Assembly: GCA_001464695.1 (NCBI GenBank)
Contig: LNDQ01000098.1
Location: forward strand, 76,771-140,770
Source of the DNA: Betaproteobacteria bacterium Ga0077523
GTDB taxonomy: Bacteria > Pseudomonadota > Gammaproteobacteria > Burkholderiales > Ga0077523
Direction of reading: 5' to 3'
Length of the DNA stretch: 64,000 bases
A program made the position numbers and the translations under genes. The notes under the pieces were generated by a model. It was not told the origin of the DNA. It did not search any database and saw nothing but the letters and a program-made list of their open reading frames with translations. Shown here piece after piece: positions 2,249 to 48,601 of the stretch (position 1 is the stretch's first letter; every line of letters starts with the position of its first letter).

Positions 2249-2258
2249 AACGTTCATT

Positions 2259-3272: not shown

Positions 3273-3283
3273 TTCGGGCTCTG

Positions 3284-4069: not shown

Positions 4070-4074
4070 CAGCG

Positions 4075-27199: not shown

Positions 27200-27224
27200 G
27201 CGCCGTGGCGACGTTGGACGAGAC

Positions 27225-27254
27225 GGGCTGACTGCGGTCAGCCCGCTTTCTTTC
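27225..27254 (+). terminator. hairpin terminator after slyD (overlaps the 3' end of the convergent permease gene)
   Basis: GGGCTGAC-TGCG-GTCAGCCC followed by GCTTTCTTTCC. Confidence 0.6.
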
Positions 27255-28053
27255 CGGTGAGCACCCGGATCACGGAGTCGAACGCGGCCTCGCCGGAGAA
27301 CCGCACGCACGCGAGGGTCACGGCCGCGATGGTGAAACCGACCAGCACGGTAACGTCAAGTCCCAACGAGAATTCCGGTGCGAAGCGCCCTTCGACGCCC
27401 GTAAGCAGCGCATGTTTGAGCAGGTCCACGCCGTAGGTGTACGGGTTGAGTGTCGCGACGATCCTGAGCCACTGTGGCAGCTGGGTGATCGGGTAGAGCG
27501 ATCCGCTCAGGAAGAACACCGGGAAGATCACGAAGTTCATCAGGGCGGCGAAGTTGTCGAGCGTCTTCGTGAAGGCTGCGGCGAGCATGCCGATGCCCGC
27601 GCAGGCGGCAGGCACCAACAGGAGGCCAAGCACCAGCAACGGGATGTCGATCGCGGCGAAGCGCAGGTAGCCGAGGAGCGCCAGCAACACCAGCAGCATG
27701 AGGGCCTGCAGCAGAGCTGACACGACGGCACTCAGGGTCTTGACGATAACGATCCAGTAGTGCGCGAACGGGGCGATCACCAGCATGCGCATTACGCCGG
27801 ATTCCTTGTCGTAGACCATGGTGAGCGCCGAGAGCATGGCGCCGAACAGCATGGTCATGCCGAGCACCCCGGGTGCCAGGAACTGCTGGTAGGAGAGTCC
27901 TCCCGCGCTGCCCAGCACTGCCCCGAAGCCTGAACCGATCACGAGCAGCCAGATCATGGGGCGCACCATGGAGGCGATGAGACGCGTCCGCTGGCGGCCC
28001 AGTTTCAACACTTCGCGCTGCAAGACGGCAAGGATGGGCCGCATCATGCTCAT
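27238..28053 (-). CDS. ABC-2 type transporter permease
   Basis: 271 aa with six predicted TM segments and the ABC-2 N-terminus MSMMRPILAVLQREVLKLGRQRTRL. The ATG overlaps the ATPase TGA (ATGA). Confidence 0.85.
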   Translation of the reverse strand: MSMMRPILAVLQREVLKLGRQRTRLIASMVRPMIWLLVIGSGFGAVLGSAGGLSYQQFLAPGVLGMTMLFGAMLSALTMVYDKESGVMRMLVIAPFAHYWIVIVKTLSAVVSALLQALMLLVLLALLGYLRFAAIDIPLLVLGLLLVPAACAGIGMLAAAFTKTLDNFAALMNFVIFPVFFLSGSLYPITQLPQWLRIVATLNPYTYGVDLLKHALLTGVEGRFAPEFSLGLDVTVLVGFTIAAVTLACVRFSGEAAFDSVIRVLTGKKAG

Positions 28054-28985
28054 GGGCGCGGTCCTGGAAGATCGGCGCCGGCGTGGACCCACAGGAACAC
28101 GTCGTTCAGGTTGGGCCGGCGCACGCGCATCGCCGTGGCGAGGTCACCCAGTTCTTCCTGCAACCGTGCGAGCGGCGCAGTGTCTTCGTGGGGGTGGAGA
28201 AAGAGGGCCGTGTTGCCTTCCTTCAATCCTCTGCCGAGGGTCGGTTGAGCCTGCGCCAGCAGCGCCTCCACGTCGGCGCTCTCGAACTCGACCACGTGAC
28301 GACCGAGGTTCTCCACCAGGGCGCGCGGGGCACCTTGCGTCACCAGGCGGCCCTTGCGGATGAAGGCCACGCGCTCGCAGGCGTCGGCCTCCTCCAGGTA
28401 GTGCGTGGTCAGCAGCACCGTCATGCGGTTGCGCTGGCGCAGGCCTTCGATGAAACGCCAGATGCGGCGCCGGACCGGAATGTCGAGGCCGATGGTGGGT
28501 TCGTCGAGGAACAGTACGCGTGGTTCGTGGATGACGCCACGGATGATGTCGAGAGCGCGGCGCTGCCCGCCCGAGAGCGAACCGGTCGGTGCATGGAACT
28601 TGTCGGCAATGCCGAAGAGTTCCAGCAATGCCTTTGCCCGCCGCTCGATCTCCCCACCCGTCAGGCCATAGAGCCGGCCCGCGAAGCGCAGGTTCTCCGC
28701 GACCGATAGCGTGCGATCGAGAGCCGACTCCTGGAAGACGAGTCCGATCCGGCCGCGAACGCCGACCGCATCCGCACGGACGTCGAACCCCGCCACGCGA
28801 GCCGACCCCGCGGAGGGGCGCACGAGCGTGGCCAACATGTGGATCGTGGTGGTCTTGCCCGAACCGTTCGGTCCGAGCAGGCCGAAGAACTCGCCTTCGG
28901 CGATCTCGAGATCGAGTCCGTCCACCGCAACGACCTCGCCGTAGCGGCGTTGCAGCCCCTGCGCCTCAATGGCGCAGGCCGTCAT
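28050..28985 (-). CDS. ABC transporter ATP-binding protein (ABC-2/DrrA-like subfamily)
   Basis: Walker A GPNGSGKTT, signature LSGGQRR and Walker B LFLDEPT. I trimmed the start to MTACAIEAQGL at 28985; that ATG overlaps the pqqE TGA. Confidence 0.9.
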   Translation of the reverse strand: MTACAIEAQGLQRRYGEVVAVDGLDLEIAEGEFFGLLGPNGSGKTTTIHMLATLVRPSAGSARVAGFDVRADAVGVRGRIGLVFQESALDRTLSVAENLRFAGRLYGLTGGEIERRAKALLELFGIADKFHAPTGSLSGGQRRALDIIRGVIHEPRVLFLDEPTIGLDIPVRRRIWRFIEGLRQRNRMTVLLTTHYLEEADACERVAFIRKGRLVTQGAPRALVENLGRHVVEFESADVEALLAQAQPTLGRGLKEGNTALFLHPHEDTAPLARLQEELGDLATAMRVRRPNLNDVFLWVHAGADLPGPRP

Positions 28986-30145
28986 GTCACGGGCGTGGTG
29001 TCGGCCTTCTGCGCGGACAGCAGGCGCGAATTGCGATCGTCGCGGAACACGATGGGCTTCACGTTCGGCGGCAGGGTCGGTCGATCGGCCTTCTCCACGG
29101 CCTCGGTGATGAGGTGGTGGAACGGAGAGAGATCGCAGACCGGGTCCGCATTGCGTGCGTCCCCCGTCAGCATGTACGCCTGGCAACGGCAGCCGCCGAA
29201 GTCCTTCTCTTTCTCGGGGCAGGTGCGACACGGTTCCTGCATCCAGGCGTCGCCGCGATAGGCGTTGAAACCGGGCGAGTCGTACCAGATCCACTTGAGG
29301 TCGTGCTCGCGCACATTCGGGAAGGTGAGGCCTGGCAGCATGCGTGCTTCGTGGCAGGGCAGGACCACGCCGTCCGAGGTCACGGTGACGAACAGCGATC
29401 CCCAGCCGTTCATGCAGGCCTTCGGCCGATTGGAATGGTAGTCGGGGACGACGAAGTAGACCTTCATCTTGTCACCCACCCGTTCGCGGAACTTGTTCGT
29501 GACCTCTTCGGCGCGCTGCAGCTGATCGCGGCTCGGCAGCAACTGGTCGCGGTTCTCGAAGGCCCAGGCGTAGTACTGCGTGTTGGCGAGCTCGACGTAC
29601 TCGGCGCCGAGCTGCTCCGCCATCTCCAGGATCTGCTGCGTGTGGTCGATGTTGTGACGGTGCAGCACACAGTTGAACACCATCGGGTAGTCGTACTGCT
29701 GGATCAACTCCGCGACCCGCTTCTTGAGCTCGAAGGTCTTGGTGCTGGAGAGCCAGTCGTTCATCTCTCGCGTGGAATCCTGGAACGAGAGCTGGATGTG
29801 ATCGAGACCGCCTTCCTTGAAGGCGGCGATGCGCTTTTCCGTGAGCCCCACACCGGAGGTGATCAGGTTGGTGTAGTAGCCGAGCTTGCGCGCCTCGGCG
29901 ATGAGGACCTCGAGATCGTCGCGCATGAGCGGCTCGCCCCCGGAGAAGCCGAGCTGGGTACAGCCCAACTCGCGGCCTTCGCGCAGGACCTTGAGCCATT
30001 CATCGGTGTTCAGCTCCGGGCCATAGCTCGTGTAGTCGGTCGGGTTGTAGCAGAACACGCAGTGCAACGGGCACTTGTACGTGATCTCCGCGAGCAGCCA
30101 CAGGGGGTTACCGGGGCGCTTTGGGTCTGATCCAGCCGTTTCCAT
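28982..30145 (-). CDS. pqqE: PQQ biosynthesis radical SAM peptide cyclase PqqE
   Basis: WLLAEITYKCPLHCVFCYNP (CX3CX2C) and a SPASM Cys-rich C-terminus (CRTCPEKEKDFGGCRCQAY). Confidence 0.96.
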   Translation of the reverse strand: METAGSDPKRPGNPLWLLAEITYKCPLHCVFCYNPTDYTSYGPELNTDEWLKVLREGRELGCTQLGFSGGEPLMRDDLEVLIAEARKLGYYTNLITSGVGLTEKRIAAFKEGGLDHIQLSFQDSTREMNDWLSSTKTFELKKRVAELIQQYDYPMVFNCVLHRHNIDHTQQILEMAEQLGAEYVELANTQYYAWAFENRDQLLPSRDQLQRAEEVTNKFRERVGDKMKVYFVVPDYHSNRPKACMNGWGSLFVTVTSDGVVLPCHEARMLPGLTFPNVREHDLKWIWYDSPGFNAYRGDAWMQEPCRTCPEKEKDFGGCRCQAYMLTGDARNADPVCDLSPFHHLITEAVEKADRPTLPPNVKPIVFRDDRNSRLLSAQKADTTPVT

Positions 30146-30407
30146 GAGCTACCTCCAGAAAGTCGACGACGTCGGCCCGCAGGTCGACGCCGGGAAACTG
30201 TTGCTCGAGTTCGGTGATGATGCCGTTCAGGCTGCGCGTGCCGTCCACGCGCTTCATGATCTCTCCGGAACTGCCCGGCAGTTTCACCATGCCTTCGGGG
30301 TAGAGGATCACGTGGCAGTCCTGCGCCGGTTCCCATTGGAACCGGTAGTACTTGGCGATCTCGATGGGGGCATCGTGATCGAAGGCGATTCTTTGCGGCT
30401 GGCCCAT
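30108..30407 (-). CDS. pqqD: PQQ biosynthesis peptide chaperone PqqD
   Basis: 99 aa, YYRFQWEPAQDCHVILYPEGMVKLPGSSGEIM. It overlaps the pqqE start, and its ATG overlaps the pqqC TGA. Confidence 0.93.
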   Translation of the reverse strand: MGQPQRIAFDHDAPIEIAKYYRFQWEPAQDCHVILYPEGMVKLPGSSGEIMKRVDGTRSLNGIITELEQQFPGVDLRADVVDFLEVAHGNGWIRPKAPR

Positions 30408-31126
30408 CAGAGGAGCGTCCGGTCGCCGATGCCATAGTTGATGGCCATCGCGTCGCACATGGTCCACAGCACGTCCAGTTTGAACTGCAGGATGTCGAGC
30501 GCACGCTCCTGCTGCTCGCGCGTCTTGAAGTACTGCAGCGTGACGCGCAGCCCATGCTCGACGTCGCGCCGTGCTTCGGACAGGCGCTTGCGAAAGTACG
30601 CGTAGCCGGCCTGGTCGATCCAGGGATAGTGCTGGGGCCAGTTGGCGAGCCGCTCCTTGTGGATCTCGGGGGCGAACAGTTCGGTGAGGGAAGAGCACAC
30701 CGCTTCCTGCCAGGGGCGTGTGCGGCCGAAGTTGATGTATGCGTCGATCGCGAAGCGCACGCCGGGCAGCACGTGCTTGAGCGACGTGACTTCAGCGCGG
30801 TCGAGGCCCACGGCATCGGCGAGTGTCAGCCACGCCTCGATGCCGCCCTCGTCACCCTGGGTGCCGTCGTGGTCGATGATGCGCTGGATCCACAGGCGGC
30901 GATGCTCGCGGTCCGGCATGTTGGACATGATGCCGGCATCCTTGATCGGGATCGCGATCTGATAGTAGAAGCGGTTGCAGACCCAACCCTGGATCTGCTC
31001 CTTGGTGAGCTTGCCGCTGTTCATCGCCACGTGATACGGGTGGTAGATGTGATAACGGCTGCCCTTGGCGCGCAACTGCGCCTCGAATTCTTCCTTGGTC
31101 CACGGCAGGTTCTCGGCGGCTCCCAT
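30407..31126 (-). CDS. pqqC: pyrroloquinoline-quinone synthase PqqC
   Basis: [32 protein letters not shown] and RIIDHDG. The start is MGAAENL at 31126, behind GGGGGAGAG. Confidence 0.95.
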
Positions 31127-31136
31127 GGCTCTCCCC

Positions 31137-32051
31137 CTACAAGGTGATGTCCATCCCGTCGAACGCAACCTCGATCCGGTGGCGGGTGAGTTCTGCCCGC
31201 TCGGCCGAGTCCTCGTTCAGGATCGGATTGGTGTTGTTGATGTGGATGAGGATCTTGCGGCTCGCGCGCAGCGGATCGAGCACGTCGATCATGCCACCGG
31301 ACCCCGATTGCGGCAGGTGTCCTATGTCGCGTGCTTTCTTCTTCGAGATGCCGAGCCGCACCATCTCGTCGTCGGTCCAGAACGTGCCGTCCACCATCAC
31401 GCAGTCGGCCTGTTCCAGGAACGGTTTCAGGTGCGGCTCGATTTCGCCCAACCCGGGTGCATAGAACACGTTCTTGCCGGTACGAGTGTCGGTGATGCGC
31501 ATCCCGACGTTGTCGCCCTCGTGCGGGTTGTCGCGATGTGGCGAGTAGGGCGGCGCCTTGCTCTTGAGCGGCACCGCGGTGAACGACAGGTGCTCGCCGC
31601 CGGGCACTTCGAAGCGGTTGCCCGATGCGGTGGGCAGCTGGTGCCAGTTCACGCCGCAGTAGTGCCCGAGGATGTTGAACAGCGGATTGCCGGTGGTCAT
31701 GTCCTCGCGGACCATGTCGGTGCAGAACAGTTCGAGCGGCTTGCCTTCGCGCAGCATCAGAAGGCCGGTGGTGTGATCGATCTGGCCGTCCATCAGCACC
31801 ACGGCGCGGATGCCGGTGTCGCGCAGGCCGCGTGCCGGTTGCAGTGCAGGAAAACCGCGGATCTGCTGCAGGATGTCAGGGGAGGCATTGAACAGCACCC
31901 AGTCGACGTCATTGCCGCTCACCGCGATCGACGATTGCGTGCGCGCCTGCGCCCGGACGGTGCCCTTGCGCAGGCCGTCGCAGTTCGGGCAATTGCAATT
32001 CCACTGCGGAAAGCCGCCGCCTGCGGCTGCTCCGAGAACTCGGATTCTCAT
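31137..32051 (-). CDS. pqqB: PQQ biosynthesis protein PqqB (MBL fold)
   Basis: [24 protein letters not shown]... Confidence 0.95.
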
Positions 32052-32103: not shown

Positions 32104-32135
32104 AAAAACGAAAGCCCCGTAGACCGGGGCTTTCG
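32104..32135 (-). terminator. hairpin plus T-tract (attenuator/terminator) between pqqA and pqqB
   Basis: On the minus strand: CGAAAGCCCCG-GTCTA-CGGGGCTTTCG followed by TTTTT. Confidence 0.75.
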
Positions 32136-32152: not shown

Positions 32153-32224
32153 TTAGCGGTTGGCGATGTACATCGTGACTTCGAAGCCGAAACGCATTTC
32201 GGTGTACTCAGGCTTGTTCCACAT
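32153..32224 (-). CDS. pqqA: PQQ precursor peptide PqqA (copy 1)
   Basis: Not in the ORF track. Hand translation gives [23 protein letters not shown], which contains the E-x3-Y cross-link motif. GGAGG Shine-Dalgarno sequence lies 5 nt upstream. Confidence 0.93.
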
Positions 32225-32473: not shown

Positions 32474-33952
32474 ATGAATGCGCCTGCCTACGCTCGTCCC
32501 ATGGATCGAACCATTTCTGCGACCGCTCGACCCTGGCGCCCCGAAGCCGCACCCGAGTGGTACGGCGACCGGCTGTTCCTGGCAGCGCTTGCGATCTCGA
32601 TCGTCTTCCACACGCTCAACGTGATCGTGCTGCCGAAGCTGTTGAAGTCGGTCAAGTTCGTCGAGAAGCCGCCGCTCGTGGTCGAACTCATCGAGCCGAA
32701 GAAACCGGAGCCGCCGCCGCCGAAGAAGGTTGAACCGCCGCCGAAACCCAAGCCCGTGGCCGCGGTCAAGGTGCCCGAGCCGGTCGCGCGGGTCGAGCCG
32801 AAGCTCGAGGCCCGGCCCGAGTTGAAGCCGCTCCCGATTCCGGAGACCCGGCCGCAAGTGCAGCCGCAGCCGCGTGCGGAAGTGCGCCCGCAGGTGCCGC
32901 AGCAGGTCCGCCCCGAATTGCGGACGGAACCGCGCCTCGAGCCGCAGGCCGCGATCACGCCGGAGCCGATGCCGGACGTGAAGCCGCAGGTGCGCCCGGA
33001 AGTGCGTCCCGAGGTGAAGCCTGAAGTGCGTCCCGACCTCAAGCCGACTGCGCGTCCGGAAGCGCGTGTCGAACCGCGGCTGGAGGCGCGTACGCCGGTG
33101 GCACCTACCCCCGTGCCGGACGTGAAACCGACACCGCGCCCCGAGCCGCGTCAGGAGGTCCGGCCGGAAGTGCGTCCGGACGTGAGGCCTGATCCGCGCC
33201 CGCAATTGCAGACCGCGCCGACGTTGACCGCGCGCACCGAATCGCCCGTGGAAGTGCAGGTGCCGACCGCACCGCCACCGCGTCCTGAAGCGCCGACGGC
33301 ACGCGTAGAGCCGCGGCCCGAAGTGTCCGCCAGCAAGCCCGCACCCGTGGTTGCTGCACCGGCGGCGCCCACGGCGTCGGTCGCGCCGCCGGTCCCCACC
33401 GCCGCGCCCTCGGTGACGCCGCAGCAGACTGCGCCGACGGCGCGGGTGGAACCGCGGCCCGAGGTTCAGGCAGCCAAGCCAGCGCCGGTGGTTGCGGCGC
33501 CCGCGGTGGCTGCCGCGGTGGTGGCTCCACCTCCCCCGACCGCGGCGCCCGCAGTGACTGCCACACCTACGGCACCTGCACCTGCGGCGCCCACGGCCGC
33601 AAGCCAGGGCCCCGCCAAGCCTACGCCTGCTGGGGCTCCGACAACCGCTGCGATCGATACCTCTGCCTTGAAGAACTACGCGCTTCAGATCTCAATGGAG
33701 ATTCGCAAAGACCAATTCTATCCGCGGCGCGCCCGCACCATCGGCTGGCAGGGCACGACAGAGGTGCTGATCCGCATGAGCGCGGATGCCAAGGTGAAAG
33801 AGGTCACCATAGCGAAGTCCAGCGGTTACGACGTGCTCGACCAAGAGGCGCTGGAGAAGGTGCGGCGAGCGAAACACCTGCCGCCAGCGCCCGAGAATTT
33901 CAAGGACCGCGAGTTCACGGTCCTGGTGCCGATCGTCTTCAAGCTCGAATGA
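32474..33952 (+). CDS. tonB: TonB family energy transducer with a very long Pro-rich spacer
   Basis: N-terminal TM segment with the S-x3-H motif (AISIVFH), about 340 aa of (R/K/E)P repeats, and a C-terminal TonB domain (YPRRARTIGWQGTTEVLIRM...SSGYDVLDQEALEKVRRAKHLPPAP). Confidence 0.88.
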   Translation: MNAPAYARPMDRTISATARPWRPEAAPEWYGDRLFLAALAISIVFHTLNVIVLPKLLKSVKFVEKPPLVVELIEPKKPEPPPPKKVEPPPKPKPVAAVKVPEPVARVEPKLEARPELKPLPIPETRPQVQPQPRAEVRPQVPQQVRPELRTEPRLEPQAAITPEPMPDVKPQVRPEVRPEVKPEVRPDLKPTARPEARVEPRLEARTPVAPTPVPDVKPTPRPEPRQEVRPEVRPDVRPDPRPQLQTAPTLTARTESPVEVQVPTAPPPRPEAPTARVEPRPEVSASKPAPVVAAPAAPTASVAPPVPTAAPSVTPQQTAPTARVEPRPEVQAAKPAPVVAAPAVAAAVVAPPPPTAAPAVTATPTAPAPAAPTAASQGPAKPTPAGAPTTAAIDTSALKNYALQISMEIRKDQFYPRRARTIGWQGTTEVLIRMSADAKVKEVTIAKSSGYDVLDQEALEKVRRAKHLPPAPENFKDREFTVLVPIVFKLE

Positions 33953-33983: not shown

Positions 33984-34931
33984 GTGAGCACGCTCTATCC
34001 CCCACTCGAGCCCCATCGCTCGGGGCATCTCGACGTGACCGGAGGCCATCGCATCTGGTTCGAGGTGAGCGGCAATCCGTCCGGGCGGCCGGTGCTGTTC
34101 CTGCATGGCGGTCCGGGCAGTTCGACCAAGCCCGACCATCGCCGCTATTTCGACCCCGCGCACTATCGCATCGTGCTGTTCGACCAACGCGGTTGCGGGC
34201 GGAGCCTGCCGGCGGGCGGCATCGACGACAACACCACGGCGCATCTCATCGACGACATCGAGCGCCTGAGGATCGAGCTGGGCGTCGAGCGCTGGCTGCT
34301 GTTCGGCGGTTCGTGGGGCAGCACGCTGGCACTCGCCTATGCGCAGACGCATCCGAAGCGAGTGGATCGCCTGATCCTGCGTGGCATCTTCCTCGCATCG
34401 CACGCTGAACTCGACTGGTATTTCGTCGGGCTGCGGCAGTTCATTCCCGAGGCGTGGGGCGAGTTGTGGAGCGTCGCCCCCGGACTGTCATGGCCGCAAC
34501 TGGTGCGCTGGTACTACTCGAATCTTTACGGATCGCAAGCGAGCGCGGTCGCGGCCCGCTGGAGTGCGTTCGAGACGGCGGTCATGTCGATCGGCGAGAG
34601 CCAGCCGCTCGCACCCCCGGCAAGTGCCGGCGACGGCGTGCTCGCCCGTGCCCGCGTCCAGGTGCACTATCTCGCGCACGACTGTTTTCTGCGCCCCGGA
34701 CAACTGCTCGACGACATGCCGCGTATCGCGCATCTTCCCGCCAGGTTGCTGCACGGCCGACAGGATTTCGTCTGCCCGCCGTCCACCGCCTACGATCTCG
34801 CCCGCCGCTGGCCGCAGGCGCGGCTCACCTACGTGGAGCAGGCGAAGCACGCCTCGTCCCATCCGGCGCTGGAGCGGGAGCTGATCGCGGCTGCCGATGC
34901 CGCGCGCGATATCGAACGCGTTCCGGGGTGA
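33984..34931 (+). CDS. pip: prolyl aminopeptidase (proline iminopeptidase, S33 alpha/beta hydrolase)
   Basis: LFLHGGPGSS, VLFDQRGCGRS and GGSWGSTLALAYA (nucleophile elbow). Confidence 0.9.
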   Translation: MSTLYPPLEPHRSGHLDVTGGHRIWFEVSGNPSGRPVLFLHGGPGSSTKPDHRRYFDPAHYRIVLFDQRGCGRSLPAGGIDDNTTAHLIDDIERLRIELGVERWLLFGGSWGSTLALAYAQTHPKRVDRLILRGIFLASHAELDWYFVGLRQFIPEAWGELWSVAPGLSWPQLVRWYYSNLYGSQASAVAARWSAFETAVMSIGESQPLAPPASAGDGVLARARVQVHYLAHDCFLRPGQLLDDMPRIAHLPARLLHGRQDFVCPPSTAYDLARRWPQARLTYVEQAKHASSHPALERELIAAADAARDIERVPG

Positions 34932-36718
34932 GCGGCGTGAGCCTGCGCTTTCGCATCAATCTGCTCATCACGGTGCTCACGGCGCTCTTCACCGCTGCGT
35001 TGATCCACGTCATGGTCCAGGATGCGCGCCGTTCGATCCGCGAGGAGATGGAGGGTGCGAATCGCGCCACGTTGCAACTGCTGTCCACCGTCATCCGGGA
35101 TGCTCAGTTGAGTGCCAAGGCCGGGCAGGGAAGCGCGTCGCTACTGCTGTTCCTGCGGGACCTGGGGCGCGTGCGGGCTCACGATATCCGCCTGTACGAC
35201 TACGACGATCAGTTGCTGTACACGTCGCCGCCGTCGGCCTACAAGCCTGGCCGTGCCGCGCCCGCGTGGTTCATCAAGCTGGTGCAGCCGGAGATGCCGC
35301 TCATCAACCTGCCGGTCGCGGGCGGCAACGTGACCGTCACGGTCGACGCATCGCGGTCGATCCTCGACGCGTGGGACGATATCAACAACCTCATGCTGCT
35401 GATCCTGGGGTTCGTGGTGGCGGCGAACCTGCTGGTCTTCTTCTTCACGGGGCGTGCGTTGAAGCCGGTCAGCACCGTGCTCGAAGGTCTGAAGCGCATG
35501 GAACGTGGCGAGTTCGATGCGCGCATGCCACGGTTCGCGCTGCCTGAATTCGACGCCATCAGTCATACGTTCAATGGCATGGCTGATGCGCTCGCCGAAT
35601 CCCACGCCGAGAACCGTCGCCTCGCGTTGATCGCGGAACAATCGGGTGACGCAATCCTGATCCAGGATCTCGAAGGCCTCGTCTCGTACTGGAACCCGGC
35701 GGCAGAGCGACTGTTCGGCTGGACAGCGGGGGAGATCCTGGGCCGATCCGCGACGCTGATCGCGCCGCCGGATCGCCTCGACGAGTTCCGGGCCCACACG
35801 GAAACCATCCGCGCACGCGGCGTGGTCGATCACGTGGAGACGCAGCGGCTCGCCCGCGACGGGCGGTTGATCGAAGTCGCGCTGAGCGCGGCACCTCTGG
35901 TGGATCCGGCGAGCAGCACCGTGATCGGCGAGATCTGCTCGCTGCGCGACATCACCGAGGTCAAGCGCGCGCGCGAAGCGGAGGCCGAACTTGCCCAGAA
36001 TCGCCGTCTGACACAGGTGATCCAGAGCCGCCTCGAGGAGGAACGCCATGGCATCGCGCGCGAACTGCACGATGAACTCGGCCAGTGCCTCACGGCGATC
36101 AAGACCATCGGTGCGGTGATCGCCAACCGTACCGAAGGCACGCAACCGGAGATACACGAGAACGCCGAGACCATCGTTTCGGTCACCGAGCGCATGTACG
36201 ATTCGGTCCACGGCATCATCCGCCAGTTGCGGCCGAGCGCGCTGGACCATCTCGGCCTGCGCGAGACACTTGAGGAGGCGGTGGCGAACTGGCGCCGGTT
36301 GAACCCCACCATCCAATGCAGGCTCGATCTGGACGGCGCGCTCGACGCGCTCGGCGAGCGCGTCAACATCACCGTCTATCGCATCGTGCAGGAATGCCTC
36401 ACCAACATCGCGAAGCATGCAGGCGCTAGCGAGGCGTCGGTCAGCGTGAGCCACACGGGCGCGGAGCAGGATGAAAGCCTCGAGATCGTGGCGCGCGACA
36501 ACGGCAAAGGCCTCGTGGCGCGCGATCCGCGGGAAGCCGTGCGCTTCGGGCTGATGGGCATGCGCGAACGCACGGAGGCGCTCGGCGGATCGTTCGTCAT
36601 CGAGAGCGAGGTGGGCAAGGGGGTCACGGTGCGCGTGTCGATTCCGCTGGCCGGTGGTGTCGCCCGCAACGGGCTGAACCACGGAGCGGTGCGGGACGCC
36701 CGGGGCTCGCCGGCATGA
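34928..36718 (+). CDS. NarX/UhpB-type sensor histidine kinase (TM-HAMP-PAS-HisKA_3-HATPase)
   Basis: The H-box RELHDELGQCLTAIK, a PAS segment (AILIQDLEGLVSYWNPAAERLFGW) and an HATPase C-terminus. GTG at 34928 overlaps the pip TGA. ORF 34454..36718 is over-extended. Confidence 0.88.
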   Translation: MSGVSLRFRINLLITVLTALFTAALIHVMVQDARRSIREEMEGANRATLQLLSTVIRDAQLSAKAGQGSASLLLFLRDLGRVRAHDIRLYDYDDQLLYTSPPSAYKPGRAAPAWFIKLVQPEMPLINLPVAGGNVTVTVDASRSILDAWDDINNLMLLILGFVVAANLLVFFFTGRALKPVSTVLEGLKRMERGEFDARMPRFALPEFDAISHTFNGMADALAESHAENRRLALIAEQSGDAILIQDLEGLVSYWNPAAERLFGWTAGEILGRSATLIAPPDRLDEFRAHTETIRARGVVDHVETQRLARDGRLIEVALSAAPLVDPASSTVIGEICSLRDITEVKRAREAEAELAQNRRLTQVIQSRLEEERHGIARELHDELGQCLTAIKTIGAVIANRTEGTQPEIHENAETIVSVTERMYDSVHGIIRQLRPSALDHLGLRETLEEAVANWRRLNPTIQCRLDLDGALDALGERVNITVYRIVQECLTNIAKHAGASEASVSVSHTGAEQDESLEIVARDNGKGLVARDPREAVRFGLMGMRERTEALGGSFVIESEVGKGVTVRVSIPLAGGVARNGLNHGAVRDARGSPA

Positions 36719-37356
36719 GCGGCACGATCAAGGTCATGCTGGCCGACGACCACGCGGTGGTGCGCATGGGCTTCCGGCTCCTGCTGGAGGGCTCGCCCGA
36801 CATCCGTGTCGTGGCCGAAGCGGAAAGCGGCGAGGATGCGGTGCGGCGGTTCGCCGAAGTGAAACCGGACGTGGTCGTGCTCGACCTGTCGATGCCCGGC
36901 ATCGGTGGCCTCGAAGCGCTCTCCCGCATCCTGGCGCGCGAACCGACCGCCAAGGTGCTGGTGCTGACCGCCCACGAAGACGCCATGCACGCGAGGCGGG
37001 TCTTGAAAGCCGGGGCGCTGGGATACCTGTCCAAGCGGAGCGCCGCGGAAGAACTGATCCAGGCGATCCGTCAGGTGTGGGCCGGCCGGACCTTCCTGGA
37101 GCCGGCGATCGCCCAGCAACTCGCCGTGCAGCAGCTCACCGGGGAGCGCAACCCCGTGGACATGCTCTCCGAGAAGGAATTCAAGGTGTTCCTGGCGCTG
37201 GCCCGCGGCCAGAGCGTTGCCGACATTGCCGAGGTCATGTCGCTGAGCCCGCGGACCATCGGAACACATCTTTACAATATCAAACAAAAGCTTGGCGCTT
37301 CCAACTCGGCCGAGCTGGCGATTGTTGCAATGCGGCACGGATTGCTGGAGCCCTGA
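36715..37356 (+). CDS. NarL/FixJ-family response regulator
   Basis: Receiver domain (VMLADDH, VVVLDLSMPG) and LuxR HTH (LSEKEFKVFLALARGQSVADIAEVMSLSPRTIGTHLYNIKQKLG). The ATG overlaps the kinase TGA. Confidence 0.93.
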   Translation: MSGTIKVMLADDHAVVRMGFRLLLEGSPDIRVVAEAESGEDAVRRFAEVKPDVVVLDLSMPGIGGLEALSRILAREPTAKVLVLTAHEDAMHARRVLKAGALGYLSKRSAAEELIQAIRQVWAGRTFLEPAIAQQLAVQQLTGERNPVDMLSEKEFKVFLALARGQSVADIAEVMSLSPRTIGTHLYNIKQKLGASNSAELAIVAMRHGLLEP

Positions 37357-37588: not shown

Positions 37589-37660
37589 ATGTGGAACAAG
37601 CCTGAGTACACCGAAATGCGTTTCGGCTTCGAAGTCACGATGTACATCGCCAACCGCTAA
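37589..37660 (+). CDS. pqqA: PQQ precursor peptide PqqA (copy 2, orphan)
   Basis: Not in the ORF track. It matches copy 1 at 72/72 nt ([23 protein letters not shown]) and has its own GAAGGAG Shine-Dalgarno sequence. The flanks are unrelated to those of copy 1. Confidence 0.9.
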
Positions 37661-37752: not shown

Positions 37753-39933
37753 ATGTTTCACCGCCCCCGGCGCTACGCCGCCCGCGCGTTCACGCGCCCG
37801 CTTGCCGCATCGCTGATCGCATGCACTCTTCCCGTGATCGGATCGGCTCAGGAAACCGCCGACGCGGGGCGCGCGTCGCCGGTGGTGATCACCGGCACCA
37901 GGACGGAGCAGAAGGCGTTCGACCTGCCCATGTCCATCGATCTCGTCGACAAGCAGCGCATCTCCGACGGCCAGCTCGGTGTCAACGCGTCGGAGGCACT
38001 GGTGACGGTGCCTGGCGTCGTGGCCAACAACCGGCAGAACTACGCCCAGGATCTCCAGATATCCATCCGCGGATTCGGGTCTCGATCCACCTTCGGGGTG
38101 CGTGGCATCCGACTCTACGCGGACGGTATTCCGCTCACCATGCCCGACGGGCAGGGTCAGGCGGCAAACATCGATCTCGCGACCGCGAAGAGCATCGAGG
38201 TGTTGCGGGGCCCGTTCTCATCTCTTTACGGCAACTCCTCGGGCGGTGTAATCAGCGTCTTCACCGAGGATGGGCCGCCGGACTTCACCGTGAGCCCGTA
38301 CGGCATGTACGGGTCGTTCGAGACATGGAAGGCGGGCACGAAGGTCGGCGGCACCTCGGGCAATGTGAACTACGTGTTCAACGTCTCGCGTTTCGAAACC
38401 AGCGGCTACCGCGACTGGAGCGCAGCCCAGCGCGACATGATGAACGGCAAGATCACGGTCACGCCGGACGACATCCAGAAGTTCACGCTGGTGGTGAACT
38501 ACCTGAACCAGCCCGATACCCAGGATCCGCTCGGCCTCACGGCGGCGCAGGTGGCGCAGAACCCGCGCCAGGCGGGTTCGGTCACCGCCACCCAGACCGC
38601 GGCGGACTACAAGGTGCGCAAGTCCATCGACAACGCCCAGGTCGGGGGCGTGTACGAGCGCAAGCTGTCCGAGGACGACATGATCCGGGGCCTGGTCTAT
38701 CTCGGTGATCGGCAGGTGACGCAATATCTCGGCGTGACGCCGGGCGCGCAGGCTCCGGCGAGCAGCGGTGGCGGGGTCATCGACCTCGACCGGACCTTCT
38801 GGGGTGTCGATCTGCGCTGGGTACACCGGACCAGCCTCGGTGCCAGGCCGCTGTCGTTCACCTTGGGTACGAACTACGATCGGCAGACCGAGCGGCGGCA
38901 GGGCTACAACAACTTCATCGGCCCGACGCTGGGGGTGCTCGGCGCCTTGCGGCGCGACGAGGACAACACGGTCTACAACTTCGATCAGTACGCCCAGGCC
39001 GAATGGCTGGTCTCCGATCGCTGGATACTGTCGGGCGGTGTGCGCTACAGCAACGTCACCTTCCGCAGTACCGACTACTTCATCATCCCCGGCACCAACC
39101 CGAACGACAGCGGCAGTCGCGACTTCGACCAACTGAGTCCGGTCGCGGCGGCACTGTACAAGCTGACGCCCACGGTGCACGCGTACGCGAGCTTCGGCAG
39201 GGGATTCGAGACGCCGACGTTCGCCGAGCTTGCCTACCAGACCACGACGGCGTCTGGCGCTGGCCTCAACAGCACGATTCAGGCGAACCGCACGCGCAAC
39301 TACGAGATGGGACTGAAGGCGCTCGTGGGACGGGATACGCGCCTCAACGCCGCCATCTTCCGCATCAATGCCGACAACGAGATCACCGTGCAACAGAACG
39401 TGGGTGGACGGTCGGTTTTCCAGAACGCCGGCCCCACGACGCGAACCGGCTTCGAACTGGCGGCGGACGCCCGTTTCAAGGGCGGCTTCTTCGCCTACGG
39501 CGCAGCGACCTACATCGATGCGACTTTCGACTCCTCGTTCACCACCTGCCCGCCCGCGCCGCCGTGCGCCGCGGCGAACGTTCCGGTGGCGGCAGGCAAC
39601 GCGATTCCCGGCATCCCCGGCTACACGCTGTATGGCGAATCGGGCTGGCGGGCGAGCTGGATGGAAACGGCAATCGAAGCGCGACGGTCCGATCGCGTAT
39701 TCGTGAACGACACCAACAGCGAGTTCGCTCAGGCCTATAACGTCTACAACTGGCGCATCAGCTTCCGCCAGGAAGTCGGCAAGGTCCGCTTCACCGAGTT
39801 CTTCCGCATCGACAACTTGCTCGACACCGCATACGTGGGCTCGGTCATCGTCAACGGCGCGAACGGCCGTTTCTACGAACCCTCGCCGGGACGTGCCTTC
39901 TACGTCGGGGCGAGCGCCGCGATCACGTTCTGA
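37753..39933 (+). CDS. TonB-dependent receptor, YncD/PqqU-like (candidate PQQ importer)
   Basis: 726 aa with a signal peptide. Plug motifs NRQNYAQDLQISIRGFGSRSTFGVRGIRLYADGIPLTMPDGQGQ and C-terminus [33 protein letters not shown]. From memory these resemble E. coli YncD; this has not been checked by alignment. Confidence 0.85.
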   Translation: MFHRPRRYAARAFTRPLAASLIACTLPVIGSAQETADAGRASPVVITGTRTEQKAFDLPMSIDLVDKQRISDGQLGVNASEALVTVPGVVANNRQNYAQDLQISIRGFGSRSTFGVRGIRLYADGIPLTMPDGQGQAANIDLATAKSIEVLRGPFSSLYGNSSGGVISVFTEDGPPDFTVSPYGMYGSFETWKAGTKVGGTSGNVNYVFNVSRFETSGYRDWSAAQRDMMNGKITVTPDDIQKFTLVVNYLNQPDTQDPLGLTAAQVAQNPRQAGSVTATQTAADYKVRKSIDNAQVGGVYERKLSEDDMIRGLVYLGDRQVTQYLGVTPGAQAPASSGGGVIDLDRTFWGVDLRWVHRTSLGARPLSFTLGTNYDRQTERRQGYNNFIGPTLGVLGALRRDEDNTVYNFDQYAQAEWLVSDRWILSGGVRYSNVTFRSTDYFIIPGTNPNDSGSRDFDQLSPVAAALYKLTPTVHAYASFGRGFETPTFAELAYQTTTASGAGLNSTIQANRTRNYEMGLKALVGRDTRLNAAIFRINADNEITVQQNVGGRSVFQNAGPTTRTGFELAADARFKGGFFAYGAATYIDATFDSSFTTCPPAPPCAAANVPVAAGNAIPGIPGYTLYGESGWRASWMETAIEARRSDRVFVNDTNSEFAQAYNVYNWRISFRQEVGKVRFTEFFRIDNLLDTAYVGSVIVNGANGRFYEPSPGRAFYVGASAAITF

Positions 39934-40993
39934 AGCGAGGCGTGTTCCCCGCCTCGGCGGGGAACACGATGACGTGCGCAGTGTCGAGCCGGATACCGAT
40001 GGGTGTGCCGGTCGGATGGTCATGATGGCTCGGCACCAGTGCTGTCACGGTCGCGCCGCTGGCGAGTTGCAGCGAATAGAGGATCTCGGCACCGCGGAAG
40101 GCCTTCGACATCACCACGGCCTTGCACGGGGCCGCATCATCGTGCACCACGTCGTCGGGACGCAGCAGCACGTCCAGGGGTTGCCCGTCAGCAGCAGACC
40201 GCGGCAGGTGTACTTCGCCCGTCAGCAGTCCCAGTTCCGTTTCGATGCCAGCGTGGGTACGTCGGCCCGGCACGAACGCGCCCTCGCCGATGAAGTCGGC
40301 TACGAAACGGGTGGCGGGTCGATGGTACAGATCGTAGGGGGCGGCCCATTGCTCGATACGACCCTCGTGTACGACGCCGATGATGTCGGCGAAAGCGAAT
40401 GCTTCGTGCTGGTCGTGTGTCACTAGTATCGCGGTCGTGCCTTCGCGCAGCAGGATCTGCCGCACTTCGCCGGCCAGGCGTTCTCTCAGATCGACGTCGA
40501 GGCTCGAAAACGGCTCATCGAGCAGCACCAGGCGCGGGCGCGGTGCGAGCGCGCGCGCGAGGGCCACGCGCTGTTGCTGGCCGCCGGAAAGTTGGTGCGG
40601 ATAGCGTTGACCGAGTCCGGCGAGGCCGGTGAGTTCGAGCAGCTCGGCAACGCGTGAAGCGCGCGCGACCTTCGCAAGGCCGAACCCGATATTGGCTGCC
40701 ACGTCGAGATGGGGAAACAGGGCGAAGTCCTGGAACACCATGCCCATGTGCCGGTGCTCGGGCGCGACGACGCCGTCACGCGACGAGATCACCACGCCTT
40801 CGAGCGCGATGCTCCCCGCTTCGGGGTTTTCGAAACCGGCGATCAGGCGCAGCAGCGTGGTCTTGCCGCAGCCGGAGGGGCCGAGCAGGCAGGCGATGCC
40901 GCCGGCGTGGAGATCGAAGCTCGCTTCCCGCACCACGGGCCGGGCGCCGTAGCGATGGGTAAGGCCGGCGAGTTGCAGGAGAGGCGGGGACAC
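39923..40993 (-). CDS. fbpC: Fe(3+)/polyamine-type ABC importer ATP-binding protein
   Basis: [31 protein letters not shown] and a TOBE-like C-terminus. GTG start. Confidence 0.85.
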
Positions 40994-41030
40994 GGGCCGG
41001 GATTATAGGTGGTGCGTAGAATCGCAGCCC

Positions 41031-42689
41031 ATGTCCGCAATCGCCATGAGCACCCGGATGCCGTCGACGTCGTCGCGAACCGTCGTCGTTGCCACGACCC
41101 TTCTGGGGTTGTTGATTGCGTTGCCGTTGATCGGGTTGTCGGCGAGCCTCTTCGCGCCCGGTGCGGGCGCTTCGTGGTCGCATCTTGCCGAGACCGGGCT
41201 GCCCGGCTATGCGCGCTCGAGCGCCGTGCTGGCGCTGTTCGTGGCGATGGGCGCTGCGATCGTGGGTGCCGGCACGGCGTGGCTCACGGCGGCGTATCGC
41301 TTTCCCGGCTCTCGCTTGTGGTCGTGGGCGCTCGTCCTGCCGCTGGCGGTACCGTCCTATGTGATCGCCTACGCCTACACCGACCTGCTGCAGTTCGCCG
41401 GGCCGGTACAGAGCTGGATTCGCGCGACCTGGGATCTGCGTGCGCGCGAGTACTGGTTTCCGGATATTCGTTCCCTCGGCGGTGCTGCCGTCGTGTTCAC
41501 GCTGGTGCTGGCGCCGTACGTGTACCTGCCGGTGCGCGCCGCCTTCGCGGAAATGCCGGCCAGCCTGGGTGAGGCGGCGCGGCTCGCGGGGGTGCGGCCG
41601 CTGCTCGCGTTCCTCAAGGTGGAGTTACCGCTGGCATGGCCAGCGCTCGCGGCTGGTCTCGCCCTCGTCGTCATGGAAACACTCGCCGATTTCGGGGCCG
41701 TCTCCTATTTTGCCGTCGACACCTTCACCGTAGGCATCTACAAGGCCTGGCTGGGACTCGGCGATCGCACGGCTGCGGCACAATTGGCTTTGGTGCTGCT
41801 CGGGTTCGTGGTGGTGCTGGTGGTGATCGAGCGAGTCGTGCGCGGTGCGCGGCGGTTCTCCGTGCGGGGCACCACGGCACCTCGGCGCGTGCGCCCGTTG
41901 CGCGGCTGGCACGCCTGGGCTGCCACCATGGTCTGTGCACTGCCGGTTGCGCTCGGGTTTGTCTTGCCGGTCGTAGTGCTGGCGCAGCTTGCCTGGCGCG
42001 ATGTCGAAGCGCACGCCTGGTCGCGCTTCGCCGCCATGGTGGGGGCAAGCTTGCAGGTGTCGATCGCGGCGGCGGTGATCACCGTTGGCGTCGCGCTTGC
42101 CTTGACCTATGCGGTGCGCCTTACGCGCAGCCCTTGGTTGAACGGCATCAGCGGCTTCGCGGCATTCGGATATGCGGTGCCCGGTGCCGTGCTGGCCATC
42201 GGCATCCTCATTCCGCTCGCCAGGTTCGACAACGTTCTCGCCACCGCGCTCGAGTTGCATTTCGGCGTCAATCCCGGATTGCTGCTGACCGGCAGTGTTG
42301 CCGCGCTGCTCTACGCCTACGTGGTGCGATTTCTCGCCGTCGGCCTCAACAATGTGCAAAGCGGCTTCGCGCGTATCACGCCGCACATGGACGAAGCCGC
42401 GCGCAGCCTCGGTTGCGGCCCCTGGTCGCTGCTGCGGCGCGTGCATGTCCCGCTGCTTGCGAGAAGTCTCGCTGTCGCAGCATTGCTCGTCTTCGTCGAT
42501 GCGCTCAAGGAACTGCCGGCCACTCTCGCGCTGCGGCCCTTCAACTTCGACACGCTGGCGACCCAGGCCTACAACTTCGCCAAGGACGAGCGCCTCGGCG
42601 AAGCGGCGCTGCCCAGTCTCGTCATCGTGGCCGTGGCGCTGCTGCCGGTGCTCTTGACCACGCGCGCCCTCGCGTCGCGCCGGACCTGA
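41031..42689 (+). CDS. fbpB: iron(III) ABC transporter permease (duplicated MetI-like domains)
   Basis: 552 aa, about 12 TM segments, two EAA-type loops (EAARLAGV, EAARSLGC). Confidence 0.85.
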   Translation: MSAIAMSTRMPSTSSRTVVVATTLLGLLIALPLIGLSASLFAPGAGASWSHLAETGLPGYARSSAVLALFVAMGAAIVGAGTAWLTAAYRFPGSRLWSWALVLPLAVPSYVIAYAYTDLLQFAGPVQSWIRATWDLRAREYWFPDIRSLGGAAVVFTLVLAPYVYLPVRAAFAEMPASLGEAARLAGVRPLLAFLKVELPLAWPALAAGLALVVMETLADFGAVSYFAVDTFTVGIYKAWLGLGDRTAAAQLALVLLGFVVVLVVIERVVRGARRFSVRGTTAPRRVRPLRGWHAWAATMVCALPVALGFVLPVVVLAQLAWRDVEAHAWSRFAAMVGASLQVSIAAAVITVGVALALTYAVRLTRSPWLNGISGFAAFGYAVPGAVLAIGILIPLARFDNVLATALELHFGVNPGLLLTGSVAALLYAYVVRFLAVGLNNVQSGFARITPHMDEAARSLGCGPWSLLRRVHVPLLARSLAVAALLVFVDALKELPATLALRPFNFDTLATQAYNFAKDERLGEAALPSLVIVAVALLPVLLTTRALASRRT

Positions 42690-42692
42690 CCA

Positions 42693-43709
42693 TCACCGCC
42701 ATCCGGCGCGATCGGCGAGCTTCTGCGCAGCCGGCGTGCGGGTCGCGATCTCCGCGATGGGCAGCGCATCGGCCTTGAACTTGCCGAGCGACTCCAGCTC
42801 CGGATTCTTCGCGACGGCGGTCTTCACCACGGGCCATTCGTTGTTGCCGTTGGCGAAATAGGCCTGCGCTTCGTCGCTCGCAAGGTACTCGAGGAACGTC
42901 AACGCGGCTTCCTTGTTCGGTGCGTTCTTGAGCACGCCGCCGCCGGAGACGTTCATGTGCGTACCCCAGCTCGCCTGGTTCGGCCACACCAGCGTGACCT
43001 TCTCCGCGATCGCGCGGTCCTCCGGTTTCTTCGAGCGCATGAGGCGCACGAAATAGTAGGAGTTGGTGAGCGCGATGCCGCATTCGCCCGAGGCCACACC
43101 CTTGATCTGATCGGTGTCGCCGCCGCGCGGCGGCCGCGCCATGTTGCCGACCACGGCCCGGGCCCATTCCTCCGCTTTCTGTTCACCGTCGTGGGCGATG
43201 ACCGAAGCGATGAGCGAGAGCATGTACGGATGGCTGCCGGGCCGAGTGCAGACCTTGCCCTTGTTGACGGGCAGGGCGAGATCCTCGTAGCGCTGCACGT
43301 CGGCAGCGTTCACGGCCGCCTTGTCGTAAACGATGACCCTGGCGCGGCTGGAAAACGCAAACCACGTGTCGTTCGCGCTGCGCAAGTCTTTCGGAATGCG
43401 GCTCCCGAGCACTGCGGATTTCACCGGCGCGAACAGTCCCGACTGATCGGCCGCGTAGAGGCGCGAGGCGTCCACGATGAGTAGGACGTCCGCAGGACTG
43501 TTCGCGCCCTCGTTGCGAACCCGTTCGAGCAACGCTTCGTCACCCGCTTCGATGCGATTCACCTTGATGCCGGTCGCCTTGGTGAAGTTTGCGTACAGCG
43601 CTTCGTCGGTGTCGTAGTGGCGTGCGGTGTAGAGATTGAGGACCTTGTCGTCCTGGGCGCAGGCGGTGCCGGCGATGATGGCGAGAGGGAAGAGAAGAGC
43701 GCGAAGCAT
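42693..43709 (-). CDS. fbpA: Fe(3+) ABC transporter substrate-binding protein
   Basis: Signal peptide MLRALLFPLAIIAGTACA, then LNLYTARHYDTDEALY and NSYYF. Trimmed from ORF 42693..43757. Confidence 0.85.
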   Translation of the reverse strand: MLRALLFPLAIIAGTACAQDDKVLNLYTARHYDTDEALYANFTKATGIKVNRIEAGDEALLERVRNEGANSPADVLLIVDASRLYAADQSGLFAPVKSAVLGSRIPKDLRSANDTWFAFSSRARVIVYDKAAVNAADVQRYEDLALPVNKGKVCTRPGSHPYMLSLIASVIAHDGEQKAEEWARAVVGNMARPPRGGDTDQIKGVASGECGIALTNSYYFVRLMRSKKPEDRAIAEKVTLVWPNQASWGTHMNVSGGGVLKNAPNKEAALTFLEYLASDEAQAYFANGNNEWPVVKTAVAKNPELESLGKFKADALPIAEIATRTPAAQKLADRAGWR

Positions 43710-43734
43710 GGTGATCCTTGAACGAGAAAAAGGG

Positions 43735-45663: not shown

Positions 45664-45810
45664 CGGGGGGAGATGTCGGGGCAGAAGGGCGCGATTGTAG
45701 CTGCACGTGAGTCGGAGACCAACGGTGAGCTCAAAAGGTTCATGCGTAATTTCAGGGACCTACAGCACCTGTTGAGATTCCCCTGCGGGATAGTGCGCTC
45801 GACTTGACTA

Positions 45811-45829
45811 TATAATGCGAATCATTATC
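45811..45829. promoter_or_regulatory. Fur box overlapping a sigma-70 promoter (TTGACT-N16-TATCAT) for the DUF2325 gene
   Basis: TATAATGCGAATCATTATC matches GATAATGATAATCATTATC at 16 of 19 positions. Confidence 0.75.
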
Positions 45830-45905
45830 ATTACGAAATGCAATGTGATGCGAAGCCAGTGCAAGCCAGCCATCGCGACGACTGCAGGACTTCACGGAGA
45901 TCGAG

Positions 45906-46238
45906 ATGAACGCAATGCTTGTGGGCGCAGATCGGCTCGGGAATATTCCGGAGCGCTTGGCAACCTTCGGTATCACCATCACGCGCCACGTTTCCGGGCG
46001 CAACGCGACCCATCAACGGCGGTTGCCCACGCTGCCAAAGGATATCGACCTGCTGATCCTCTTCACCGATTTCCTCGGACACAACGTGATGAAGAGCTTC
46101 CGCAGCCAGGCGCAGGCCGACGGGGTGCAGGTGGTGGCATGCCGGCGCTCTGCCAGCTGCCTCACCGAGGAACTCGAGCGCTGCTTGACGCCGGCAGAGG
46201 CGTGCGAGGCTTGTCCCCGGCGGTCCGCATCCAACTGA
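45906..46238 (+). CDS. DUF2325-like small protein with a Cys-rich tail
   Basis: 110 aa. MLVGADRLGNIP...DLLILFTDFLGHNVMKSFR...VVACRRSASCL matches my recollection of DUF2325. The tail is C-x7-C-x6-C-x2-C. Confidence 0.7.
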   Translation: MNAMLVGADRLGNIPERLATFGITITRHVSGRNATHQRRLPTLPKDIDLLILFTDFLGHNVMKSFRSQAQADGVQVVACRRSASCLTEELERCLTPAEACEACPRRSASN

Positions 46239-46300
46239 AGTAAGGCGTTGGCCCGGGCGACGCCGCGCGACGGCGACACCCCCCGGGCTCGAGTACCGCT

Positions 46301-48460: not shown

Positions 48461-48601
48461 GGTGCTGGTCTCCGGGAATGTTGTTGTCGTCGTTTCGCGC
48501 GTCCGGCCCTGCACGATGTCAGCGTCGCCGCGCGCAACTCGATGCCTCCCGCATGAGGCGAGGCGCTGCCTGGCTCAATGGCCAAGTCAGTTGGGCGACG
48601 A

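Follow-up and report, generated by a model that had tools for sequence, protein, structure and literature searches.

How does pyrroloquinoline quinone (PQQ) leave the cytoplasm in which it is made? The question is raised by an ATP-binding cassette (ABC) transporter of the ABC-2 type, a split pair of ATPase and permease, which is encoded directly downstream of pqqE in the genome of Betaproteobacteria bacterium Ga0077523 (contig LNDQ01000098.1, positions 76,771 to 140,770). The whole stretch of 64,000 nucleotides is referred to as the window, and coordinates are counted from its first letter. PQQ is a hydrophilic tricarboxylate of 330 Da to which lipid bilayers are impermeable, and how it gets out of the cytoplasm has long been a missing piece in a cofactor pathway that is otherwise well studied. 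The transport was formerly credited to PqqB. It is established that PQQ is made in the cytoplasm, transported to the periplasm and used there (PMC12124388). An earlier note on this DNA had stated that, to its author's knowledge, no PQQ exporter is established, and the literature indeed yields hypotheses only. The fused ABC protein META1p2359 of Methylorubrum extorquens was put forward as a hypothetical PQQ exporter (PMC7391723), and PMC12124388 cites, for PQQ transporters, only an omics study of Gluconobacter oxydans with candidates. Neither an ABC-2 pair after pqqE nor an established PQQ exporter was found in the full-text literature, a scope that leaves out most subscription-journal papers.

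The gene order at the locus and in its relatives makes the pair the best available, unproven candidate for the step by which PQQ passes from cytoplasm to periplasm. The ABC-2 exporter class is already known; what appears to be new is an unnamed ABC-2 family welded to the pqq operon.

The ATPase-permease pair and the pqq operon

The pair ends a run of genes on the minus strand, which reads from 32224 down to 27238 as pqqA, a hairpin, pqqB, pqqC, pqqD, pqqE, ATPase and permease. The features of the run are the following.

32153-32224, minus strand: pqqA copy 1, precursor peptide of 23 residues with Glu-x3-Tyr, the part becoming PQQ (translation; Pfam PqqA match)
32104-32135, minus strand: hairpin followed by UUUUU between pqqA and pqqB, with a stem of 11-13 bp and a loop of 5 nt (sequence reading and folding)
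31137-32051, minus strand: pqqB (TIGR02108, 433.8 bits, cut-off 245)
30407-31126, minus strand: pqqC (TIGR02111, 366.8 bits, cut-off 240)
30108-30407, minus strand: pqqD (TIGR03859, 100.8 bits, cut-off 46)
28982-30145, minus strand: pqqE, radical SAM/SPASM enzyme (TIGR02109, 520.8 bits, cut-off 381)
28050-28985, minus strand: ABC ATPase of 311 residues (Pfam ABC_tran, 102.9 bits)
27238-28053, minus strand: ABC-2 permease of 271 residues (Pfam ABC2_membrane, PF01061, 109 bits)
27224-27245, strand-neutral: GC-rich palindrome at the permease stop codon, forming a 10-bp hairpin (terminator scan and folding)

The pqq genes constitute a canonical pqqABCDE operon, in which pqqA encodes the Glu-x3-Tyr motif, PqqB to PqqE score above the equivalog cut-offs of NCBIfam, and all genes are colinear. 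The stop codon of pqqE (TGA, 28982-28984) and the start codon of the ATPase gene (ATG, 28983-28985) overlap in an ATGA at 28982-28985. The ATPase stop codon (28050-28052) and the permease start codon (ATG, 28051-28053) overlap in a second ATGA at 28050-28053. The genes pqqD and pqqE share 38 nt, and a gap of 10 nt separates pqqB from pqqC. All these junctions had been described correctly in the earlier note, but the ATGA that it gave for pqqC and pqqD is in fact a TGATG with an overlap of 1 nt at 30407. The same note had found no terminator from pqqB to the permease, and a pattern scan detected neither terminator-like nor promoter-like sites between pqqB and the permease stop codon. The negative results of the scan need care, since it missed the hairpin between pqqA and pqqB, which was confirmed by folding (-26.1 kcal/mol, z = -3.15). 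This hairpin is likely a partial terminator or attenuator and resembles the pqqA-pqqB attenuator of other PQQ producers. It lies upstream of the genes from pqqB to the permease, which had been proposed to be one unit, and does not contradict that proposal. Downstream of the permease, a convergent gene for a SlyD-like protein ends at 27199, facing the pair, and the palindrome is probably a two-way terminator common to both. The palindrome and the convergent gene therefore mark the permease as the last gene of the operon. The GC content at third codon positions is 0.86 in the pair and 0.85-0.88 in the pqq genes. The arrangement supports a single coupled unit of the seven genes of the run.

The ATPase has the features of an ABC-2 (type V) nucleotide-binding subunit. 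Its motifs are intact in the translation and comprise the Walker A motif GPNGSGKTT, the Q-loop VFQE, the signature LSGGQRR, the Walker B motif VLFLDEPT with the catalytic glutamate, and the H-loop TTHYLEE. The closest solved structures are nucleotide-binding domains of ABCA-type (type V) exporters, the Thermotoga protein 4yer, and the mycobacterial efflux ATPase Rv1218c. The permease is predicted to consist of six transmembrane helices and an N-terminal interface helix. It was modelled with AlphaFold2 from an alignment of 27 homologues, with a predicted local distance difference test score (pLDDT) of 82 and a predicted template modelling score (pTM) of 0.83. A Foldseek search with the model matched KpsM with a template modelling (TM) score of 0.70-0.71, and insect ABCH, ABCG2, Wzm and TarG with scores of about 0.6-0.7, as well as ABCG5/G8; the top structural matches are type V exporters throughout. 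The permease is a separate subunit that carries an ABC2_membrane domain and, in the model, has a six-helix fold of type V. The operon encodes no periplasmic solute-binding protein and no such family is conserved around the 80 related loci described below, while one encoded elsewhere is possible.

The scores of the pair fall short of the cut-off of every curated family. The ATPase reached 278.7 bits with DrrA (TIGR01188, cut-off 312.45) and 215 bits with NodI (cut-off 521), and the permease reached 158.6 bits with DrrB (TIGR01247, cut-off 223.05). The models of the PQQ-dependent alcohol dehydrogenase system gave 209.1 bits for the ATPase (TIGR03864, cut-off 302.25) and 157.5 bits for the permease (TIGR03861/PedC, cut-off 241.35). 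The permease also has a weak match of 30 bits to Pfam CcmB. Membership in DrrAB, NodIJ or PedBC was considered and rejected on these scores, and NCBIfam, Pfam and the Protein Data Bank (PDB) provided only generic ABC-2 relatives. In the case of PedBC, the partners PedA1 and PedA2 are also absent from the operon and from the conserved neighbourhood. Since all curated scores are below the cut-offs, we assign the pair to a family that has no name so far and falls within the DrrAB-like ABC-2 group. Relatives are currently labelled in public records only as "ABC-2 type transport system permease protein" or "ABC transporter permease", and the family merits an annotation model of its own.

Linkage of the pair to pqq genes in other genomes

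The permease alignment was scanned against one genome per species (185,579 species), which identified 557 relatives. The best 80, with identities of 46-82%, were kept, and the linkage was read by tblastn with the proteins of the window. Four of the 80 loci were too short upstream, leaving 76 informative ones. In 71 of these 76 (70 identified by script, together with locus L048, in which the PqqE match is split), pqqE is located directly upstream of the pair in the colinear order pqqB-C-D-E-ATPase-permease. The measurement of co-occurrence proposed in the earlier note therefore agrees with its reading, and the adverse outcome that it named, relatives found mostly beside unrelated genes, did not occur. 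The linked loci belong to metagenome-assembled genomes (MAGs) of Burkholderiales and Rhodocyclaceae, to Steroidobacteraceae, Methylophaga and other Methylophagaceae, to marine beta-proteobacteria and delta-proteobacterial MAGs, and to Pelomicrobium and several genomes of Entotheonella. Cultured carriers include Methylophaga thiooxydans DMS010 (L063) and Pelomicrobium sp. G1. One locus (L044, CAMDGF010000010.1) with the order pqqE-ATPase-permease at 60-63% identity bears the name of a Klebsiella pneumoniae MAG, probably through a mistake in binning or labelling.

The identities of permease and PqqE to the window proteins are correlated (r = 0.82, n = 70), as are those of permease and ATPase (r = 0.90), which is expected if the genes are inherited as one unit. 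Of 72 loci, 54 have ATPase and permease genes that share 4 or 1 nt. The junction of pqqE and ATPase is overlapping in about 32 of the 72, and most of the remaining gaps are shorter than 60 nt; the overlaps across loci rest on a heuristic choice of start codons.

The five informative loci without pqq genes, together with two short loci, form a single clade nested within the family in a neighbour-joining tree. This looks like the result of a single relocation event rather than of loose association. In four of these loci (L018, L033, L050 and L042, the last from Methylohalomonas lacus), the pair is divergent beside genes for a histidine kinase and a sigma-54-type response regulator. The latter two genes, of about 480-500 codons, were considered as PqqF/G peptidases before they turned out to be the regulator and the kinase. 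In Methylohalomonas lacus, genes of the YkuD transpeptidase family and of the MotA/ExbB family follow the pair.

An exhaustive HMMER search with the permease in 1.84 billion representative sequences delineated a compact family. One cluster at 50% identity contains the window protein, a few clusters are 41-49% identical to it, and below them the sequences merge into a continuum of other ABC-2 proteins. Three of the proteins at 41-49% identity match the permease over part of their length and may be fused ATPase-permease versions (P0121, 610 residues; P0127, 669; P0128, 631). Among the more distant relatives, two loci have a second gene order. In one of them (L204, 35% permease identity, region 351-4797), the order is pqqC/D-pqqE-ATPase-permease-pqqB, with pqqA farther on; in the other (L206, 38%, region 137-4123), it is pqqC-pqqD-pqqE-ATPase-permease-pqqB. 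The former encodes a PqqC/D fusion and a short ATPase of 225 residues without the C-terminal domain. A third locus (L207, 39%) has pqqE-ATPase-permease. The linkage therefore extends to about 35% identity and includes an order in which the pump is located inside the biosynthetic operon. Two contigs at 40% identity (L209 and L210) begin at the ATPase and carry two pqqA-like open reading frames (ORFs) and a gene for an 882-residue PQQ-repeat protein just downstream. No pqq genes were found around the pair of a relative at 32% identity (L208), and the contigs of three further representatives (L205, L211 and L212) were too short for context.

The frequency of the pair was determined from the opposite direction, in pqqE loci sampled independently of the pump. 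A degenerate DNA pattern for the PqqE motif DFGGCRCQA was used to search JGI metagenome contigs, and all 80 loci found in this way encode PqqE homologues (38-79% identity). At least 500 nt beyond the pqqE stop codon are available in 58 of them, and five of these 58 (about 9%), with PqqE identities of 44-57%, have an ABC ATPase gene directly after pqqE. In four (L095, L101, L126 and L135), the ATPase is followed by a permease of the same family as that of the window (37-54% identity), and in the fifth (L088) the contig stops within the ATPase. A sixth locus (L149) has the beginning of an ATPase gene before the contig ends. To our knowledge, the classical pqq operons of Klebsiella, Pseudomonas, Acinetobacter, Gluconobacter and Methylorubrum lack the pair. 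Although specific, the pair is an accessory that only a minority of pqq clusters possess, and it cannot be the general PQQ exporter. It follows from this minority distribution that PQQ export must be solved in at least two ways among bacteria.

Genes surrounding the operon

The region upstream of pqqA, on the opposite strand, contains further genes that can be related to PQQ.

32474-33952, plus strand: TonB-family protein of 492 residues, divergent from pqqA (TonB_C, 66 bits; TIGR01352)
33984-34931, plus strand: prolyl aminopeptidase (TIGR01249, 291.3 bits, cut-off 259.75)
34928-36718, plus strand: PAS/HisKA_3 histidine kinase (family scan)
36715-37356, plus strand: LuxR-type response regulator (family scan)
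37589-37660, plus strand: pqqA copy 2, with 72 nt of coding DNA 100% identical to copy 1 and unrelated flanks
37753-39933, plus strand: PqqU-like TonB-dependent receptor (NF041535 TonB_rec_PqqU, 628.3 bits, full length)

The receptor is a candidate for the uptake or recapture of PQQ at the outer membrane, and a producer of PQQ would then encode such a receptor next to its own pqq operon. PqqU is by far its best family, the next one scoring 161 bits. It is called PqqU-like only, because its score misses the PqqU cut-off of 1200 bits. Receptor genes of the same kind, with products 45-49% identical to that of the window, are located directly after the permease and on the same strand in three loci of Steroidobacteraceae (L036, 10941-12974; L037, 11046-13025; L041, 3263-4546), giving the order pqqBCDE-ATPase-permease-receptor. 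The TonB-family protein may be a dedicated TonB for the receptor; matches to known families are confined to its C-terminal domain, and its long N-terminal part has none. The second copy of pqqA is positioned about 90 nt upstream of the receptor gene, with no hairpin behind it, and may be co-transcribed with that gene. The identity of the two copies suggests gene conversion or strong selection.

Of the 80 related loci, 37 have a homologue of the response regulator near the cluster, 29 one of the histidine kinase, and 25 one of the prolyl aminopeptidase. The kinase and the LuxR-type regulator are candidate regulators of PQQ synthesis, and the aminopeptidase may process PqqA where the cluster has no pqqF/G. 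A PQQ-dependent dehydrogenase is encoded within 10 kb of the pair in 15 of the 80 loci, from five different clades. No accessory or binding-protein gene is conserved downstream of the permease in the 80 loci; the families found there (SlyD-like, peroxiredoxin, JmjC-type, DUF7931, BamC and DapA) reflect clade-specific synteny. Judged from its gene content, the segment from 27.2 to 39.9 kb reads as an island of PQQ synthesis and trafficking.

Beyond the receptor, the genes at 39923-48514 are of the iron-uptake type and include an ABC importer (an ATPase with a TOBE domain, a fused permease and a binding protein), a fusion of FTR1 with cytochrome c, and a second TonB-dependent receptor. A third such receptor is encoded at 52826-55033.

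The proposed role of the pair and its relation to known systems

Based on the structure of the operon and the conservation of the linkage, a mechanism of PQQ export can be proposed. We consider it reasonably probable that the pair is a type V exporter that delivers finished PQQ from the cytoplasm into the periplasm. A homodimeric type V (ABC-2) complex would be assembled from two copies each of ATPase and permease. Coupled re-initiation on the common mRNA would ensure that the pump is made in fixed proportion to the enzymes of PQQ biosynthesis. ATP would drive PQQ, the cytoplasmic product of PqqA to PqqE, across the inner membrane into the periplasm, where the apo-forms of quinoprotein dehydrogenases would bind it. 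PQQ that escapes from the cell would be recaptured by the PqqU-like receptor together with TonB. We give about even chances to the wider proposal that the unnamed family is a dedicated PQQ exporter in about a tenth of pqq clusters from several phyla, and that it operates in a cycle of export and recapture to which a PqqU-like receptor and a TonB-family protein also belong. In a bolder extension of the mechanism, the pump may take PQQ straight from PqqC and act as a product-release factor; PqqC appears to release its product poorly in vitro.

We infer both that PQQ, rather than an intermediate or a by-product, is the substrate and that it is transported outwards, the former purely from genomic association. 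The earlier note had argued that ABC-2 systems are exporters and that clusters for peptides made by the ribosome and modified after translation (RiPPs) commonly carry one. The second analogy is loose: the RiPP peptide exporters known to us are fused type IV/PCAT transporters, unlike the ABC-2 pairs. The first argument holds in part: the type V architecture and the lack of a binding protein are consistent with export. However, the closest PQQ-associated ABC-2 system, PedA1A2BC, which Pseudomonas putida requires for lanthanide-dependent growth, is described as a lanthanide importer (PMC6839425, PMC12997753), and the direction of transport is therefore not fixed by the fold.

Several observations weigh against the proposed export of PQQ. 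The proposal draws entirely on genomic association, and the type V fold is no proof of export, given that the related PedBC is thought to import. In the unlinked sub-clade that includes Methylohalomonas lacus, there are no pqq genes within 8-10 kb of the pair. None of the ten large ORFs of the window that were scanned encodes a PQQ-dependent dehydrogenase. The pair is missing from about 90% of the sampled pqqE loci, and none of the 216 pqqE-bearing plasmids among 72,556 plasmids carries a permease homologue at E ≤ 1e-20. It follows that PQQ must have other routes as well, and the pump could be an accessory that performs some other task related to PQQ.

Such a task is the subject of the alternative that survives best, although we regard it as unlikely. 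The pump would serve the PQQ pathway with another cargo, such as fragments derived from PqqA or AHQQ-type intermediates, and thereby protect the cytoplasm, or it would assist the release and hand-off of the product of PqqC. The linkage data fit any substrate of the pathway, the prolyl aminopeptidase homologues near 25 of the 80 loci suggest that peptides are processed there, and the apparently poor release of product by PqqC in vitro agrees with a function in hand-off. Nevertheless, most PQQ producers lack the pair and have no known trouble with toxicity. The steps of PqqB and PqqC follow proteolysis and take place in the cytoplasm; the export of intermediates would thus be wasteful, and peptide fragments are usually degraded in the cytoplasm.

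It is improbable that the pump handles metals for quinoproteins in the manner of PedA1A2BC, with Ln3+, Ca2+ or a metallophore as the cargo instead of PQQ. TIGR03864 (209 bits) and TIGR03861 (157.5 bits) are among the top named-family matches of the pair, and PedA1A2BC, itself of the ABC-2 type, is associated with PQQ-dependent dehydrogenases (PMC6839425, PMC12997753). However, both scores stay far short of the respective cut-offs (302 and 241), and the generic DrrA and DrrB models score at least as high. The window and the conserved neighbourhood lack the PedA1 binding protein and the PedA2 beta-propeller, and the pair is joined to the biosynthetic genes, in two loci between pqqE and pqqB, rather than to a dehydrogenase gene.

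To an equally small degree, we allow for a generic DrrAB-like efflux pump for drugs, detergents or lipids whose place in the operon would be due only to synteny at the local scale or to joint horizontal transfer. The best curated scores (278.7 and 158.6 bits) do come from the broad DrrA and DrrB models, and one clade of the family operates apart from pqq. Yet the linkage spans several phyla, permease identities from 35% to 82% and two gene orders, which is unexpected for a passenger gene. The GC content at third codon positions of the pair matches that of the pqq genes, and the absence of linkage in the relative at about 32% identity indicates that the association is specific to the family of the pair. 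An importer that salvages PQQ from the periplasm to the cytoplasm downstream of the PqqU-like receptor is very improbable: the island contains receptor and TonB-family genes, and three Steroidobacteraceae loci have the receptor gene immediately behind that of the permease, but a binding-protein gene is absent, the top structural matches are all exporters, and import into the cytoplasm would have no obvious purpose because the known PQQ enzymes of Gram-negative bacteria are all periplasmic (PMC12124388).

The export of PQQ thus remains the role that we propose for the pair. The analysis delimits a compact family of proteins whose linkage to pqqE is specific, deep and spread over several phyla, and the occurrence of the family in cultured bacteria makes the function directly testable. 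If the pair is an exporter, it could be used to raise the yields of industrial PQQ fermentation and to improve heterologous PQQ production.

The pair can be compared with several characterized or proposed systems. Like DrrAB and NodIJ, with which it has the best curated scores, it combines a split ATPase with a six-helix ABC2_membrane permease and has no binding protein. It differs from them in scoring below their cut-offs (312, 223 and 521), in being linked to pqq genes rather than to those for polyketides or Nod factors, and in its presumed cargo, which is a small hydrophilic tricarboxylate and not a drug, lipid or glycan. CcmAB and NosFY belong to the same transporter class and exemplify ABC-2 pumps that serve the maturation of periplasmic redox enzymes, an analogy that implies no membership; their similarity to the pair is remote, and their partner genes and cofactors (haem; copper or sulfur) are different.

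PedA1A2BC, like the pair, contains an ABC-2-type ATPase and permease tied genomically to PQQ biology, and the similarity is clear (209 and 157.5 bits). Its operon also encodes PedA1, a binding protein, and PedA2, a YVTN beta-propeller, as partners of PedBC (PMC6839425). The pair misses the cut-offs of this system, lacks PedA1 and PedA2, is part of a pqq biosynthetic operon, and has a different proposed direction and substrate. META1p2359 of Methylorubrum extorquens AM1 shares with the pair the lack of a binding protein and the proposed transport of PQQ to the periplasm (PMC7391723). In contrast to the pair, the protein as described is a half-transporter in which the ATPase is fused to the membrane part, and its gene is not located with the pqq genes. 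PqqU, the TonB-dependent importer of PQQ (PMC12124388), addresses the same problem of PQQ trafficking as the pair may do, but it is non-homologous, is located in the outer membrane, and transports PQQ in the opposite direction.

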